Assembly (NCBI GenBank): GCA_017453245.1
Contig: JAFTKM010000004.1
Span: forward strand, 44,964 to 108,963
Direction: 5' to 3'
Source of the DNA: Clostridia bacterium
GTDB lineage: Bacteria; Bacillota; Clostridia; Oscillospirales; CAG-272
DNA: 64,000 bases
The translations under genes were made by a program, and so were the position numbers. Below are positions 32,094-39,927 of the stretch, piece after piece; position 1 is the stretch's first letter, and each line of letters starts with the position of its first letter. The notes beneath the pieces were generated by a model. The model saw nothing but the letters and a program-made list of their open reading frames with translations. It made no database searches and was not told the origin of the DNA.

Positions 32094-35000
32094 ATGAGAA
32101 AACTGAAACGTGTTATATCACTGTGCCTGTGCTTGTGCATATGCCTTGGCGCGGTGTGCTCGCTCCTTGAGGCGAGCGGAGTGAATATTGCCGTAGCGGC
32201 GGATTACACGTCCGAGCTTTGGTTAGTCGACAGCGTGAATCACGCGCTTCTTGGCGGAGAGCGAAGGACCTTGTCGGAAGAATATGACCTCTCACCGTAC
32301 AAGACCGATTCGGGCTCGATGTACGTACCCGTGTCGATAGTATGTGAATATACCTCCTCAGGCTACGCCCTGACCGGCTCAGCCGTGAAGGTTTCTTTGT
32401 CGGGTGGCGGCACGGCTCGTCTGACCGTCGGCTCTGCATCCTGGACTCTTAACGGTATTTCGATGGCCGACTTCACGAATCCCGTTGCAGAGAAGGGCGG
32501 AGTCCCCTTTATCTCCATCTCTATGGCAGAGGATATATTCGGCCTTGAGTCCTATTACGACGAGGCGATGGGACTTCTCGTCCTTTCCCACAGTGAGATC
32601 AGCGGATACAGCTCCGCATATTCATCTCTGAAAACTCAGATACCCATCATTAACAGTATAGTGATGGACAGACCTACCGGAGAAGAGGTATATTCCGATC
32701 TTCAGTCCTATTCGGGCAGTACCACACATCCGAGACTCCTTATTAATGAGGAGGGGTTTGATGAATTACGCCGCGCCTATGCGAGCGGCACTCGCGGTGA
32801 TCCTTACTACGAGGGCATCGTGCATCAGCTTTATATGGGCACAAGCTATTTTAACGCCCATTTCACAGTTAACGATAGCGGCAAGGTCGTCTGGCTTAAC
32901 GATCAGGTAAGAGAAGCCATCAGACAGCCCCACTACATCTATGATGAAAACGGAAACAGACTTGTCGGAGAGACAAGCTATTCATACACAGACATTAAAA
33001 CCGGTGAGCTTATCACCGTAGAGCTTGGCAGTAACTCCTCGGGCTACGGAGACGGCTATGACCTCGGCGGCAGGTCAAACGTCGGCACCTACACCGAGAA
33101 GATGAAGAGCATAGCCTTTGCTTACCAGATGACCGGCGAGAAAAAGTACGCCGACGCCTTCTACCTCTTTGCCAAGGAGCTTGACAAATGGGAGCACTGG
33201 GGAGAGGGGCATTTCCTCAATATAGCTGACGGCTCTTATGCTTATGCTATCGGCTACGATTGGGTATACCACGCATTTGACGACGAGCCCGAGAAACGCC
33301 GTGAGCTTGCCGACATCCTTTACAACAAGGGTATGATGAAGGGCTACTACTCGATAAAGTACGACGGAGTAGGCTCGTCTATTCAGAATAAGTGCGACTT
33401 CTCCGTATCCAAGGCGGCGGGCGCCTCGGGTGCTTGGCGCACTATAAACCGTACCAACAACTGGCAGACCGTATGCGGCGCGGGAATGATAGTCTCGGCG
33501 CTTGCCATCGTCGAGTATGACGAATACCGTGACAACTGCCTCTACGTTATAGAAAACTACGTCAGCTCCTTTGAAAAGTGCCTTCTGCAGTTCGCTCCCG
33601 ACGGCTCGTATCCCGAGTCTCCGTCATATTGGTCTTATTGCGTGGATACGCTTCTCAATACACTCGTAGCATTTGAAACAAGCTGCGGCAGAAGCTACGG
33701 CTACAAGGACGCGGTAGGCCTCTATGAGAGCTTCTACTACGCGGCGGGAATATGTGATTCGGATTACTACATTTGGAACTACCACAACTCGTCAAAGTCG
33801 CGTATTGACGGCTCGTATTTCTACCTTGCGGCAAAGGTGTATGACGATCCTTGTCTTGCGGCATTCAGAAATACTATGGTATTTGAGCGTGACTTCGCAA
33901 TGTCGCTTATGGACGTAATATTCTACGATCCCGACCTTGATACAGAGGGGTACGAGATGCCCCTTGACAACAACTTTAAGGGCATACATACCGCGACCTT
34001 CAGATCCTCTCACGACTCGGAATCTGTTTACACGGGTCTGCACGTCGGCCCCGTAGCGCACGATCACTCCGACTTTGACACGGGCAACTTTATACTCAGG
34101 ATGGGCGGCGTGGATTGGTGCGGCGACCCCGGTACCGAGAACTACAACGTCAATGGCTTCTGGAACAGCTCCGAGGGTGGCACACGCTTCAAGCTATACA
34201 GAAAATCCCTTGAGGGGCACAGCTCGGTTATCATACATTCGGACGAGCTCGTCCACGGACAGAGATACACCACCTTAAACACGGATTATCCCGTGATAAA
34301 CAGCTTTTACTCGGATGAGAACGGCGGATACGCTATATCGGATATGACGAAGCAATACGGCTCCACCTGCGAGAGCGCATATCGCGGTGTTTTGCTTACC
34401 AACTCACGCCGCACCGTCATTCTCCAGGACGAGATCAGCTTCTCCTCGCCGACTACGCTGACTTGGATTCTTAATCTCATTGGCGGCATAACCATATCGT
34501 CCGATGGCAAATCTCTCACAAGCGAGATGTGGGAGGACGGTACGAAAACCGCGATCAGACTCACTATGCTCACCGATGACGAATCGCTTCGCTTCCGCCG
34601 GCTCGGATCGAACGAGACGGTGCTTGATGACACCGTAACCAAAAACAATTCGGGTATGTCGCTTGCGTGCAATCCCGAGTCGAGAGTGGTCATCGAGGCT
34701 ACCGACGTCACCGAGTTTAACGTCGCGGTGGTCTTTGATCTCTTAGGACACAAGGATGAGGCTGTTGGCTACTCCTACCTGCCTATGAGTGAGTGGACGA
34801 CCACAGATGACGAATGGCTCGATGAGGCAAACTCGGACATAGTCTATCCCGGAAATCAGCCGACCTATAAGTATAAGGCGTCGGATTTTGCCAGAGCGAA
34901 CAGAGATCTTGCCGCGGCAGACGGAGATTTCGCAAAGATTGGAAGGATACTTTCCGAGACCGCGATCTACTTCACCGATTATAATAAAAACGATCCCACT

Positions 35001-35126
35001 GTGATCGAGCTTGTCAAGGAGTATAACAAATACCGTAACAGATACAACTACGAGGTAAGCAAGATCAATCAAGAATTTATGGACGCGATGCACGTTGTCT
35101 CTCCCGTTATAGACGATGAGGAGTAG
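32094..35126 (+). CDS. Secreted heparinase II/III-like polysaccharide lyase family protein
   Basis: Signal peptide. The C-terminal HDHSDFDTGNFILRMGGVDWCGDPG matches the heparinase II/III signature. The N-terminus has a stalk-like domain. Confidence 0.7.
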   Translation: MRKLKRVISLCLCLCICLGAVCSLLEASGVNIAVAADYTSELWLVDSVNHALLGGERRTLSEEYDLSPYKTDSGSMYVPVSIVCEYTSSGYALTGSAVKVSLSGGGTARLTVGSASWTLNGISMADFTNPVAEKGGVPFISISMAEDIFGLESYYDEAMGLLVLSHSEISGYSSAYSSLKTQIPIINSIVMDRPTGEEVYSDLQSYSGSTTHPRLLINEEGFDELRRAYASGTRGDPYYEGIVHQLYMGTSYFNAHFTVNDSGKVVWLNDQVREAIRQPHYIYDENGNRLVGETSYSYTDIKTGELITVELGSNSSGYGDGYDLGGRSNVGTYTEKMKSIAFAYQMTGEKKYADAFYLFAKELDKWEHWGEGHFLNIADGSYAYAIGYDWVYHAFDDEPEKRRELADILYNKGMMKGYYSIKYDGVGSSIQNKCDFSVSKAAGASGAWRTINRTNNWQTVCGAGMIVSALAIVEYDEYRDNCLYVIENYVSSFEKCLLQFAPDGSYPESPSYWSYCVDTLLNTLVAFETSCGRSYGYKDAVGLYESFYYAAGICDSDYYIWNYHNSSKSRIDGSYFYLAAKVYDDPCLAAFRNTMVFERDFAMSLMDVIFYDPDLDTEGYEMPLDNNFKGIHTATFRSSHDSESVYTGLHVGPVAHDHSDFDTGNFILRMGGVDWCGDPGTENYNVNGFWNSSEGGTRFKLYRKSLEGHSSVIIHSDELVHGQRYTTLNTDYPVINSFYSDENGGYAISDMTKQYGSTCESAYRGVLLTNSRRTVILQDEISFSSPTTLTWILNLIGGITISSDGKSLTSEMWEDGTKTAIRLTMLTDDESLRFRRLGSNETVLDDTVTKNNSGMSLACNPESRVVIEATDVTEFNVAVVFDLLGHKDEAVGYSYLPMSEWTTTDDEWLDEANSDIVYPGNQPTYKYKASDFARANRDLAAADGDFAKIGRILSETAIYFTDYNKNDPTVIELVKEYNKYRNRYNYEVSKINQEFMDAMHVVSPVIDDEE

Positions 35127-36547: not shown

Positions 36548-37264
36548 ATGCTTTTATTCTATGTAAGACACGGTGATCCTATATACAACCCCGACTCGCT
36601 TACCCCTTTCGGCCACAGACAGGCCGAGGCTGTCGGCAAGATGCTATCGCAGTATAGGATAAACGAGATATACGCCTCCACCTCCGAGCGTGCAAAGCTC
36701 ACAGCAAAGCCGCTCTCCGAGATAATCAAGAAGGACGTCACCCTCCTCGACTTTGCCAACGAGGGACACGCTTATCGCGACCTCACCTGCTATTCCAAGG
36801 CGAGGGGATGTCACACCTGGCTCTTCTTCGCTCCCGAGATGAAGGAGCTATTCCACACTCCCGAGCTTATCGCCCTCGGTCACGAATGGTATAAGCATCC
36901 CGTATTCCGGACGGAGGAGTTTAAGGATAAGGACTACGGCGCGGGCGTTGCGCGCATACAGAAGGGAAGTGACGAATTCTTCGAATCCCTCGGCTACAAG
37001 CGTGTCAGCGACGGAAAGTACGAGGTTATCTCGCACTCGGACAAGCGTGTGGCATTCTTTGCTCATCAGGGCTTCGGACTCAGCTTCCTCTCCTGCGTGC
37101 TCGGTATCCCTTACCCCTACTTTACCACGCACTTCGACATCTGCACCACCGGTGTTACCGTCATAGAATTCGGCAACGATAACGGATACTCCTACCCGAG
37201 GATACTCACTCTTTCCTCCTCGGCGCACCTCTACCGCGAGGGACTTCCTACAAGATATACTTAA
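36548..37264 (+). CDS. Histidine phosphatase (phosphoglycerate mutase-like) family protein
   Basis: RHG motif (YVRHGDPIY) and SERAKLTA. Confidence 0.75.
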   Translation: MLLFYVRHGDPIYNPDSLTPFGHRQAEAVGKMLSQYRINEIYASTSERAKLTAKPLSEIIKKDVTLLDFANEGHAYRDLTCYSKARGCHTWLFFAPEMKELFHTPELIALGHEWYKHPVFRTEEFKDKDYGAGVARIQKGSDEFFESLGYKRVSDGKYEVISHSDKRVAFFAHQGFGLSFLSCVLGIPYPYFTTHFDICTTGVTVIEFGNDNGYSYPRILTLSSSAHLYREGLPTRYT

Positions 37265-37287
37265 AAGACAGTAGAAAACAAAAAAGA

Positions 37288-37579
37288 GGGGCTGATTCAT
37301 TTAGGCGTAATCGAAAAAGAGTCGAGAAGCCAATGAAAACAATCCTAAATTTGCATAAGTAAGAGGTGGAAATTATCGCAATTTCCACCTCTTACACTCT
37401 TTTTCTATCGCCGTTTCCTCGCTCGATGTATTCATATACATCTCTCGCTCGTCAGCCGACGATTTCCATCCTAAATTAATCTAACCCCGAAAGGCGCTTC
37501 GCACTAAGAATTCAGTCGTTTTTACCTAAAAATCATATTTATGCCCTTGATTTGACTGAATTCTTAATGACTCAGCCCC
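37288..37579 (+). repeat. MITE-like structured repeat, copy 2 (about 292 bp)
   Basis: Same termini and hairpins as 10707-11004. It also lies between convergent gene ends. Confidence 0.8.
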
Positions 37580-37589
37580 TTGCCGTTTA

Positions 37590-39677
37590 TTAAGCGCCGA
37601 AAATTGCTTTGAAAATATCCTTGATCAGTTCAATAAGCAGTTCAAAGAACATTACGATAATACTTTCCTTGGCGCTTGGGTTTTCATCAGCTTCACCCGT
37701 GTCATCCGAAATAAGCGCCATCTGCTTTGAGCACAAGTCACATAGCCCGTTGTTATCCGAGTCGGTATGATTTTCCTTATCAGACTCTTGAGCTTTACAC
37801 ACTGTACATTCACGCCAGTGAGACTCCTCATCATTTTGCCATTCGCCAAAGATGTGTCCCACAGCCTCGATGTGGTCACCCGTGTAGCTATCTCCACACT
37901 CGCAGACGTATGTAGTATAGCCTCCAACGGTGCAGGTGGGTAGGGTAACTTCGCTCGCGTAGGAATGACCGGTTGCGGGTATGATTTCTGTCTCATAGTG
38001 ATCACAGCTTGCGCAGTTGCGTTGCTCTTGTCCCTCGTTGATGCAGGTCGAGTTGTCTACTACAAACCACTCTCCAAAGCTGTGTCCCACAGCCTCGACG
38101 TGGTCACCCGTGTAGCTTTCTCCGCACTCGCAGACGTATGTAGTATAGCCTCCATCGGTGCAGGTGGGTAGGGTAATTATAGAGGTGTATGAATGAGTAT
38201 GCACTTCGGGAGTGCTTAAGAGGATTTTACCAGCAGAACGAGCAATTGTAACGGCTGTTACATTGCTACTGGGAAGCAACAAAGCGAAAAGGGTATCTTC
38301 TAAAGACATTGTATCGCCGACGTAGAAGTCTTTTGCGTACCAAGGACAAGTGTCAATGTCAAATTGTTTGTACGTAATCTGTGCGCCTAAATCCTTGTAA
38401 ATATCCAATGCGCAAATCGCGGTTAAGACCTTTGTGATGGAAGCAAGATTTTGCTGAGCGTCAGCATCTTTCTCATACAGAATTTTAGTTTCTTTGTTTG
38501 TAGAAAGAACGCAAGCGATAGCACTAGCGCAACATACATCGCTAGCAGAGCTATCAAAAGTGGGATCATTATATTTGCATATAGCTATTTCTGCGATTTC
38601 TTTTACTGCCTGATATCGGTTTTCGTCCGAATCATTAGCACCGTTTGCGTATAGTGCCACTACAATCAATTTGTCTTCGCTATTTGGTATTTCTAAAATT
38701 ACTGCTAGATTTCTTTTATCACCTAAAGTTCCGGTTTTTCCGCCGAGGATATGATAATACTCTTCTAATTCTTGTTTATGAACTGTGGAGATGACTTTTT
38801 GCGTTCTCGCGTTTATTCCGTTGACATTAACATCTTTGCTTGCTAAAGACCAAATTTCCTCCAATTGAGCATATTTGTCAGCGTAAATTAGCAATTTAGC
38901 GATATCTCGGGCTGACGCATAGTTGCAATAATTGCCAACTGGATCGCAAAATGTACTTGAACTCATACCTATATCTTCAGATTTTTTCTGCAGATATACC
39001 ATAAAAGCATTATACATTTCGGCATCTGTATAAAACACTTCTGCACGGTCACGAACTTTCTCTATCTGGACATATTGCTCGTAAAGCGTGGTCATTTCTT
39101 CTGCTGAAGGCTGTGTAGTAAATATATTCATATTAATGACCACGGGATCATCTACGTAGCCATCTAAATCTGCGCTATGTATGCTTCCAATATATATCTT
39201 ATGGTTGCGCGTCATTGTTACGATGGCCGAAGAAGTTACAAAGCTATCTGTTAATCCTGTAATTCCTACGGTGATATTGCCTAGGCATACACCAAGCTCT
39301 CCCTTTGTATAACGGGTGCAATATACTTTTGATGCAACAAAGTATTCCCCGGACTTGTTGGATACAGATGAGACAATCTGCTGAGAAGGTGATCCGAATG
39401 CCTTTAGACTGTAAGGGGCTGTTACATAGATGTCGTCTGTTATAATATTAGTGCCTGCATATTGTGAAAACGACCCCCAATTGTTTTTATTGAATCCGTC
39501 TACATATGCTAAATTGTTTTCAATGAAAATATCATAGTAGGTCAAATTTTCCCACGCAATACTATCAAGTGATAATTCCGTGTTTGTCGTAGCATTGGCC
39601 TCAATTGCAGTCACGTTAATCGATAACAGAGCAATCAATATTATTCCTAAAAAAATTATCAAGAAAGCTTTTTTCAT
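37590..39677 (-). CDS. Secreted S11 DD-peptidase-like protein with permuted motif order and C-terminal duplicated Cys-rich modules
   Basis: Signal/anchor MKKAFLIIFLGIILIALL. KTG (GGKTGTLGD) comes before SxxK (ASITK) and SxN (PSSN). There are two Cys-rich repeats of about 77 aa and a hydrophobic C-terminus. Confidence 0.6.
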   Translation of the reverse strand: MKKAFLIIFLGIILIALLSINVTAIEANATTNTELSLDSIAWENLTYYDIFIENNLAYVDGFNKNNWGSFSQYAGTNIITDDIYVTAPYSLKAFGSPSQQIVSSVSNKSGEYFVASKVYCTRYTKGELGVCLGNITVGITGLTDSFVTSSAIVTMTRNHKIYIGSIHSADLDGYVDDPVVINMNIFTTQPSAEEMTTLYEQYVQIEKVRDRAEVFYTDAEMYNAFMVYLQKKSEDIGMSSSTFCDPVGNYCNYASARDIAKLLIYADKYAQLEEIWSLASKDVNVNGINARTQKVISTVHKQELEEYYHILGGKTGTLGDKRNLAVILEIPNSEDKLIVVALYANGANDSDENRYQAVKEIAEIAICKYNDPTFDSSASDVCCASAIACVLSTNKETKILYEKDADAQQNLASITKVLTAICALDIYKDLGAQITYKQFDIDTCPWYAKDFYVGDTMSLEDTLFALLLPSSNVTAVTIARSAGKILLSTPEVHTHSYTSIITLPTCTDGGYTTYVCECGESYTGDHVEAVGHSFGEWFVVDNSTCINEGQEQRNCASCDHYETEIIPATGHSYASEVTLPTCTVGGYTTYVCECGDSYTGDHIEAVGHIFGEWQNDEESHWRECTVCKAQESDKENHTDSDNNGLCDLCSKQMALISDDTGEADENPSAKESIIVMFFELLIELIKDIFKAIFGA

Positions 39678-39809
39678 AATCTTCTCCCATTATATGAATA
39701 ACGCACACAACAAAGGTAAAAGCGTTATAGAAGCTTTTTCATTTACGTCCATTATATCACGTTTATATCTGTTTGTAAATCCGTAAGTGATTTTATTGTA
39801 GGCGAAAAT

Positions 39810-39837
39810 GTTTAAGCAAAATGTTTAATATATTTTG
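39810..39837 (+). repeat. Left 28-bp direct repeat (putative attL core)
   Basis: GTTTAAGCAAAATGTTTAATATATTTTG, identical to 53774-53801. Confidence 0.85.
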
Positions 39838-39927
39838 AAGAATTGTCAATCCCTTGTCAGTAATGTTTACAATTTGTTCACAAAGTTTTTTGTTGGGGTG
39901 GGGTGGAGTTATTTTTATATATAAAGA

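Follow-up and report, generated by a model that had tools for sequence, protein, structure and literature searches.

A circularly permuted S11 penicillin-binding-protein domain in a Clostridia multidomain protein, a probable peptidoglycan DD-peptidase

We analysed a window of 64,000 nucleotides (the whole stretch of DNA considered here; contig JAFTKM010000004.1, positions 44,964 to 108,963, of the Clostridia bacterium assembly GCA_017453245.1), and focused on one gene whose product, hereafter the query, carries a domain of the S11 family of DD-peptidases. This gene is closely preceded by TATAAT boxes and a GGGAG ribosome-binding site. A first-pass annotation of the same DNA had proposed that the catalytic motifs of the domain follow one another in a circularly permuted order, and the peptide strings that it quoted were found in the open reading frame (ORF) of 695 amino acids. 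The gene and the parts of its product are as follows, with the evidence for each in brackets:

37590..39677, minus strand: the whole gene, coding for a multidomain protein of 695 amino acids with predicted secretion (ORF listing)
39606..39677, minus strand: predicted Sec-type signal peptide, residues 1-24, with MKK, a hydrophobic run and VTA/IE (sequence)
39048..39593, minus strand: beta-sandwich like that of carbohydrate-binding modules (CBMs), the 'N-domain', ending in a helix, residues 29-210 (AlphaFold2 and Foldseek)
38562..39044, minus strand: 'B half' of S11, the canonical C-terminal half, residues 212-372 (hidden Markov model (HMM), PDB alignment, DSSP of the model)
38730..38738, minus strand: KTG motif, K314-T315-G316, on a beta strand, E106-114 of the model (sequence and model)
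38532..38567, minus strand: new linker from alpha11 to beta1, residues ~371-382 (family alignment and model)
38205..38549, minus strand: 'A half' of S11, the canonical N-terminal half, residues 377-491 (HMM, PDB alignment)
38430..38441, minus strand: SxxK motif, S413-I-T-K416, at the N-terminus of helix H208-222 of the model (sequence and model)
38262..38270, minus strand: SxN motif, S470-S-N472, in the loop before the last long helix (sequence and model)
37728..38201, minus strand: four Cys-rich modules, residues 493-650 (Cys spacing)
37593..37667, minus strand: hydrophobic amphipathic C-terminal helix, a putative membrane anchor, residues 671-695 (hydrophobic moment)

Along the chain, the motifs occur as KTG (314), SxxK (413) and SxN (470), and the canonical order SxxK, SxN, KTG is not found. 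The B half runs from the helices that follow SxN through beta3 (with KTG), beta4 and beta5 to helix alpha11, and the A half runs from beta1, beta2 and alpha2 (with SxxK) through SxN to the following helix. The linker between them joins the canonical C-terminus to the canonical N-terminus and has the family consensus DPxADxSxxxVCC. KTG indeed precedes SxxK, as had been annotated, although the distance between them is 99 residues rather than about 90.

We compared the query with canonical S11 proteins by profile and by structure sequence. Pfam PF00768 (Peptidase_S11) matched it with 54.6 bits against a gathering threshold of 27.6 (E = 1.4e-14), and the match fell into two stretches. In phmmer alignments to the PDB, query residues 379-484 corresponded to 3mfd 5-105 and residues 224-353 to 3mfd 109-232; 6muq and 6azi showed the same swapped pattern, with the B half matching residues 116-254 of 6muq. 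A canonical S11 HMM built from 12 canonical S11 proteins (380 positions) matched the query with a full-sequence E-value of 1.7e-25, residues 223-344 aligning to HMM positions 131-252 (independent E-value 8e-10) and residues 383-483 to positions 29-127 (independent E-value 7e-16). The two halves abut at HMM positions ~128-130, and the second segment ends exactly where the first starts in a normal enzyme, as the first-pass annotation had claimed. When the A half was placed before the B half in silico, as a de-permutation control, the separate scores of 33.5 and 53.1 bits became 85.3 bits in one collinear match over HMM positions 29-252. The query holds one copy of each half, and its total length is that of one domain. 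Neither a single collinear match nor two complete tandem domains, the outcomes that had been named as speaking against a permutation, was seen. On these matches, we read the query as an S11 (PF00768) homologue with non-canonical topology, and its S11 domain is almost certainly a genuine circular permutation that is conserved in a family.

The extent of this family was assessed by homologue searches. With residues 212-491 as the search sequence, about 35 proteins matched collinearly along more than 90% of the length of the query. All 31 close homologues that were tested against the canonical HMM had swapped halves with an identical breakpoint. When 1.84 billion cluster representatives were searched exhaustively with a profile, 796 proteins reached E <= 1e-30. 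The permuted order was present in 123 of the 150 best representatives, where the permuted profile matched in one stretch, and the B half preceded the A half in 155 of the 260 full-length relatives analysed; out of all 270 proteins collected, these 155 have the order and breakpoint of the query. Many relatives thus share the permutation and its breakpoint, which the first-pass annotation had put forward as a check. Chance was ruled out because of the E-values given above and because the same order and breakpoint recur in the 31 close homologues and in 123 of the 150 top representatives. Members were found in Oscillospiraceae, Faecousia, Bacilli/Coprobacillus and Clostridia metagenome-assembled genomes (MAGs), in a Staphylococcus pseudintermedius assembly (P0032; L050 8001-8789) and in the complete genomes of the Staphylococcus phages UHP46 and ZCSS1 (Herelleviridae), where they are annotated only as 'serine hydrolase'. 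When the family profile was compared with the PDB, no chain was collinear with it and no solved structure with the permuted order was found; every strong match consisted of two swapped stretches. The best matches were 6muq (99 bits) and 6azi (95 bits), both DD-endopeptidases of the penicillin-binding protein 7 (PBP7)/PbpG type.

AlphaFold2, run on residues 205-495 with a 32-sequence family alignment, predicted the permuted region as one compact domain (predicted local distance difference test (pLDDT) 93.9, predicted template modelling score (pTM) 0.92). In query numbering, the model comprises helices 218-236, 256-266 and 270-276, then two strands; beta3 310-318 (KTG), beta4 321-329, beta5 336-344 and alpha11 354-370; the linker ~371-382; and beta1 383-391, beta2 398-403 and alpha2 412-426, with Ser413 at its N-terminus. 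Further helices follow alpha2, and SxN lies in the loop before helix 472-488. Each motif therefore sits on its usual element in the model (a strand for KTG, the N-terminal end of a helix for SxxK and a loop between helices for SxN), and the modelled element order is the canonical order rotated. As modelled, the permutation makes the alpha/beta subdomain contiguous and splits the all-helical subdomain, with the new termini just after the SxN helix, and the motifs would converge on one cleft in space.

These results bear on whether the swapped order could be an artefact, that is, a mis-assembly, a non-folding remnant of two tandem domains or a set of mis-registered motifs. An insertion sequence (IS) transposase lies immediately upstream of the gene, which forms the left edge of a low-GC island, and this setting could suggest such an artefact. 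However, over 150 independent cluster representatives, some of them from complete phage genomes, share this order and breakpoint, and the single copy of each half, the one-domain length, the compact model and the predicted behaviour of the de-permutation control argue in the same direction. The same protein was also present on a public Logan contig (P0123, 682 amino acids with an alternative start), likewise just downstream of the same IS transposase. Assembly error was excluded because members occur in complete phage genomes, in S. pseudintermedius, in MAGs of several Firmicutes lineages and on this second public contig. We regard an artefact as effectively refuted, with a negligible residual probability.

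To describe the topologies in the family, we classified 270 collected proteins with a permuted-family HMM and an N-domain HMM, writing h for the post-SxN helices, k for KTG/beta3-beta4, c for beta5-alpha11, a for beta1-beta2-SxxK...SxN, and N for the accessory domain. Type I, [hkca], comprised 144 proteins: 96 stood alone, 43 were N-[hkca] like the query, and 5 were N-N-[hkca]. Type II, [ca]-[hk], was found in 20 proteins; 11 others (e.g. P0188, P0190 and P0221) carried the N-domain between alpha11 and beta1, [hkc]-N-[a]; and 83 were canonical, [a]-[hkc]. The type II set consisted of P0168, P0202, P0207 and P0254 and 16 longer proteins. The four named proteins aligned to the type I HMM at positions ~127/134-294 and then 12-130. 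Type II proteins start at beta5-alpha11, keep the alpha11-to-beta1 linker and end a few residues past beta4. The 20 proteins of this 'AB' clade were also considered as canonical-order relatives, and this was rejected on their alignments, which start at beta5, alpha11 and the linker and end after beta4. Judged from the alignments, type II is a second cut site (beta4/beta5) in the same closed ring. With type I, type II and the insertion form, non-canonical topologies in the family number at least three.

A neighbour-joining tree of the de-permuted halves (155 BA and 105 AB sequences) had a canonical root; on short internal branches without support values, type II nested among type I and a small canonical clade (e.g. 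P0251) adjoined the permuted clade. Among the relatives, P0131 reads A-B...A-B in tandem, and P0002 reads (B)A-B-A, truncated by the contig edge. P0002 was evaluated as a clean A-B-A duplication intermediate and rejected, as its ORF reaches the edge of the contig still open and its upstream peptide is the family linker. Because tandem arrangements exist among the relatives, a duplication-and-trimming route fits, and the permutation likely originated by S11 fusion or tandem duplication followed by trimming. On the simplest reading, a single fusion would have made the alpha11-to-beta1 junction, and different trimming would have followed. The first-pass annotation had offered a circular permutation or a tandem duplication that lost its outer parts; both stood, not as alternatives, since the permutation probably arose from such a duplication.

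All three catalytic motifs are kept in the query, as annotated before, and are nearly invariant across the family. Among the 144 type I proteins, SxxK was kept at Ser413 in 142 and at Lys416 in 143, SxN at Ser470 in 144 and at Asn472 in 142, and KTG at Lys314 in 144, at Thr315 in 121 and at Gly316 in 143; Asp257 of the 'ARD' motif was kept in all 144. The catalytic Ser, Lys, Ser, Asn, Lys and Gly were likewise all kept in type II (n = 20) and insertion-type (n = 11) proteins, and over all eight positions the sole exceptions there were Thr315-to-Gly in one insertion-type protein and Asp257-to-Glu in one type II protein. This conservation can be set against the possibility that the domain is a pseudoenzyme, a non-catalytic binding or sensor module with a PBP-like pocket. 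Its fusion to binding-type modules (CBM-like and Cys-rich in the query, dockerin in relatives) would suit that role, whereas the Ser, Lys, SxN and KTG Lys and Gly residues are kept in at least 98% of 175 permuted proteins with less than 50% mutual identity, which points to purifying selection on catalysis. Because the active-site residues are conserved, a working acyl-enzyme catalyst is favoured, and we consider a pseudoenzyme very unlikely.

We also characterized the accessory parts of the query. The N-terminal domain of about 200 residues that had been annotated as fused and unknown is present; it is not unknown, being a CBM-like beta-sandwich that recurs with the permuted domain. Its AlphaFold2 model (residues 29-210; pLDDT 93.4, pTM 0.88) gave 23 Foldseek matches in the PDB at E <= 1e-3. 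The top matches were CBM16 (2zey, 2zex), a porphyran-binding CBM (8xmz) and CBM61, with probability 1.00 and template modelling scores of 0.64-0.69 on the target, and CBM6, CBM35 and CBM22 also matched with probability 1.00; identity to the structural CBM matches was only 10-16%. Residues 1-210 had no Pfam match and were not assigned to any Pfam CBM family by sequence. The N-domain was present in 77 of the 270 collected proteins, in most cases as the immediate N-terminal neighbour of the permuted domain and in some cases in two copies; this count was used for its spread, as a word-index homologue search with the N-domain returned only 2 matches. The C-terminal Cys-rich modules noted earlier proved to be four, with Cys positions that read C-x9-C-x-C alternating with C-x9-C-x2-C, then CxxC...CxxC. 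They had no Pfam match and a weak phrog_1997 match, and by tblastn they matched unannotated human-gut phage contigs (MT836599, MT837831, MT835476 and others). The C-terminal tail had a hydrophobic moment of ~0.57 and a mean hydrophobicity of ~0.5 over the last 18-23 residues. The predicted signal peptide suggests that the query is secreted, and the amphipathic helix may anchor it to the membrane.

Taken together, it is highly probable that the query is a peptidoglycan DD-peptidase that is secreted and probably tethered to the membrane, with a naturally permuted S11/low-molecular-weight PBP fold as its catalytic domain. The peptidoglycan DD-peptidase activity, taken by itself, we hold to be probable, and a secreted, membrane-tethered DD-endo/carboxypeptidase would be the most likely form. 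In the proposed mechanism, the chain ends, which in a canonical enzyme are neighbours on the alpha/beta subdomain, are joined by the ~12-residue linker, and the chain would open instead in the all-helical subdomain, immediately past the SxN helix. The three-dimensional active site should thus stay as it is. Ser413 would serve as the nucleophile of the acylation step, with Lys416 as its activator; proton transfer would fall to Ser470 and Asn472, and Lys314-Thr315-Gly316, on beta3, would form part of the cleft wall and hold the carboxylate of the substrate. D-Ala-D-Ala termini or DD-cross-links would be cleaved via an acyl-enzyme intermediate, and beta-lactams would be expected to bind likewise. 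Targeting to wall glycan is the probable role of the CBM-like domain. Through the permutation, the accessory domains would be attached next to the cleft, on the helical subdomain, and no longer at the bottom of the alpha/beta subdomain. In the sister group, type II, the same fused ring would have been trimmed at a different site.

The architectures of relatives were examined in this context. Relatives fuse the permuted domain with dockerin, SASA esterase, M14 carboxypeptidase and DUF4815. The UHP46 protein (L001 5506-6825; 439 amino acids) has two tail-fibre-like repeats (AYDIAVDNGFTGTELEWVESIKG) followed by the permuted domain (residues 159-435), and its gene adjoins a small transglycosylase gene; this 'serine hydrolase' may be a virion-associated or accessory lysin. 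The fusions and the phage setting point to extracellular or virion-associated cell-wall work.

Several observations weigh against the assignment of this fold and function. The KTG Thr is replaced by D, G or S in ~16% of type I proteins. Foldseek of the permuted-domain model against the PDB gave 0 matches at E <= 1e-3, a result that fits a permuted fold without being positive evidence for one, and the best PBP, 2j7v, ranked 49th. A new fold was considered as the reading of this empty result and dropped; we attribute the result to the permutation. The Foldseek search of viral models, by contrast, counts in favour of the assignment: its two top matches were phage DacC DD-carboxypeptidases (probability 1.00) that covered only 156-164 of 291 columns, the outcome to be expected when an aligner bound to sequence order is given a permuted fold. 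The query scored 51.9 against 294 bits for the NCBIfam PBP7 equivalog (NF008668), so that it may be a carboxypeptidase, an endopeptidase or a transpeptidase. Many stand-alone family members have no signal peptide, and not every family member need act on mature extracellular peptidoglycan. One distant stand-alone permuted member without a signal peptide (P0040; L052 8001-8807) is encoded immediately downstream of a Mur_ligase_M/C gene, and both genes sit inside a cluster of LicD, glycosyltransferase, CTP-transferase and GNAT genes, a setting that hints at work in the cytoplasm on the assembly of a wall polymer decorated with peptides.

Some of these points would also fit a permuted fold that is real and catalytic and acts on a substrate other than peptidoglycan DD-bonds, of acyl-D-Ala or ester type, such as wall polymers carrying peptides, a beta-lactam or a precursor in the cytoplasm. 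The stand-alone members without signal peptides and the Mur-ligase and LicD/glycosyltransferase setting of P0040 favour such a substrate, as do scores far under every NCBIfam equivalog cut-off, the GDSL esterases in the island of the window and a weak class A beta-lactamase match at residues 311-366. However, a predicted signal peptide and a CBM-like domain are present in the query, the solved structures nearest to it are those of DD-endo/carboxypeptidases, it keeps the S11-typical 'ARD' Asp, SxN and KTG, and no equivalent of the class A beta-lactamase Omega-loop Glu166 was identified. We judge a different substrate unlikely, and a peptidoglycan DD-peptidase remains the preferred assignment.

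The gene of the query lies in a low-GC island at ~37.25-54.1 kb of the window (GC 0.36-0.40 against ~0.52 in the flanks), bordered by a histidine-phosphatase gene on one side and valS on the other. Other genes in the island are:

39928..40890, minus strand: IS rve transposase
42687..43349, plus strand: SprT-like gene
44234..45259, minus strand: REP_ORF2-G2P (Rep) gene
45553..47760, minus strand: large ORF of 735 amino acids
47879..49339, minus strand: large ORF of 486 amino acids
49395..50123, minus strand: GDSL hydrolase 1
50211..51026, minus strand: ORF of 271 amino acids with a weak phage 'neck' match
51051..52547, minus strand: GDSL hydrolase 2

No attachment sites or att repeats, tRNA or long repeats were found at the island borders, no integrase was found within 37250-54100, and PADLOC defence models matched neither the gene of the query nor its island neighbours. 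Elsewhere in the window, an ORF of 1010 amino acids at 32094-35126 looks secreted and lies just upstream of thiI. In S. pseudintermedius, the P0032 gene is divergently paired with that of a trypsin-like protease; the accessory island that contains it also holds SCIN, Abi_2 and a REP_ORF2-G2P gene, a Rep family also present in the island of the window. A homologue with N-domain and permuted domain in an Oscillospiraceae MAG (L005 4300-6100) has 51% identity and lies in a frame that stays open over more than 600 codons.

Few enzyme folds have been studied as intensively as the PBP/beta-lactamase fold, and the order SxxK, SxN, KTG is treated as its defining signature. In the open-access literature, where absence is not proof, we found no natural circular permutation of a PBP, DD-carboxypeptidase or beta-lactamase fold, and there was no dedicated Pfam, NCBIfam or PHROG family for the permuted domain, with only weak PHROG matches. 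The permuted family in Firmicutes and their phages is large and apparently undescribed. We hold it evenly balanced whether this is the first recognised natural permutation of the PBP/beta-lactamase-transpeptidase fold as a whole picture: a ring opened at at least two sites, or interrupted by a CBM, always with an intact active site; a large Firmicutes and phage family missed by sequential structure search; a catalytic cleft that the change of topology may have re-oriented relative to wall-binding and membrane-anchoring modules; and a possible virion-associated or accessory phage lysin. For protein evolution, a natural multi-register family offers a system for studying permutation by duplication and trimming in which possible tandem intermediates persist. 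For annotation, rules that rely on motif order, and structure aligners that work sequentially, overlook permuted enzymes or annotate them only by half. For cell-wall biology, a class of probable hydrolases is added in gut Firmicutes, Staphylococcus mobile elements and Staphylococcus phages. The interest is real for fold evolution and annotation, and moderate for cell-wall biology, where the activity is putative.

Finally, we compared the query with known systems. PBP7/PbpG-type murein DD-endopeptidases (MEROPS S11; 6muq, 6azi) are, like the query, single-domain S11 enzymes without the PBP5 C-terminal domain, and they share with it the SxxK, SxN and KTG motifs and the 'ARD' helix. However, their chain order is canonical and the query aligns with them only as two swapped stretches; by the score given above it is not a PBP7 orthologue, and unlike them it has a CBM-like domain, Cys-rich modules and a C-terminal tail. 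The Streptomyces K15 DD-transpeptidase (1skf), Bacillus subtilis DacB (3mfd), Staphylococcus aureus PBP4 and Escherichia coli PBP5 belong to the same superfamily and have the same motifs in canonical order. PBP5-type enzymes carry the beta-rich C-terminal domain PF07943, whereas the query has no PF07943 match (E <= 10) and is not a PBP5 orthologue. E. coli PBP5 and PBP6 are anchored by a C-terminal amphipathic helix, which the amphipathic tail of the query resembles. The canonical sister clade (P0251, P0227, P0246, P0033, P0034 and P0057), which adjoins the permuted clade in the tree, scored at a comparable ~100-115 bits per half against the permuted-family HMM; its order is beta1...SxN, helices, KTG and a C-terminal alpha11, without the alpha11-to-beta1 linker. 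The closest functional analogy for the topology is offered by class A beta-lactamases (S. aureus PC1 and TEM-1) that were circularly permuted by engineering and can be folded, active enzymes. In these, native termini were joined and new ones opened, on the principle proposed here for the query; they are laboratory constructs of beta-lactamases, whereas the query is a natural, putative DD-peptidase.

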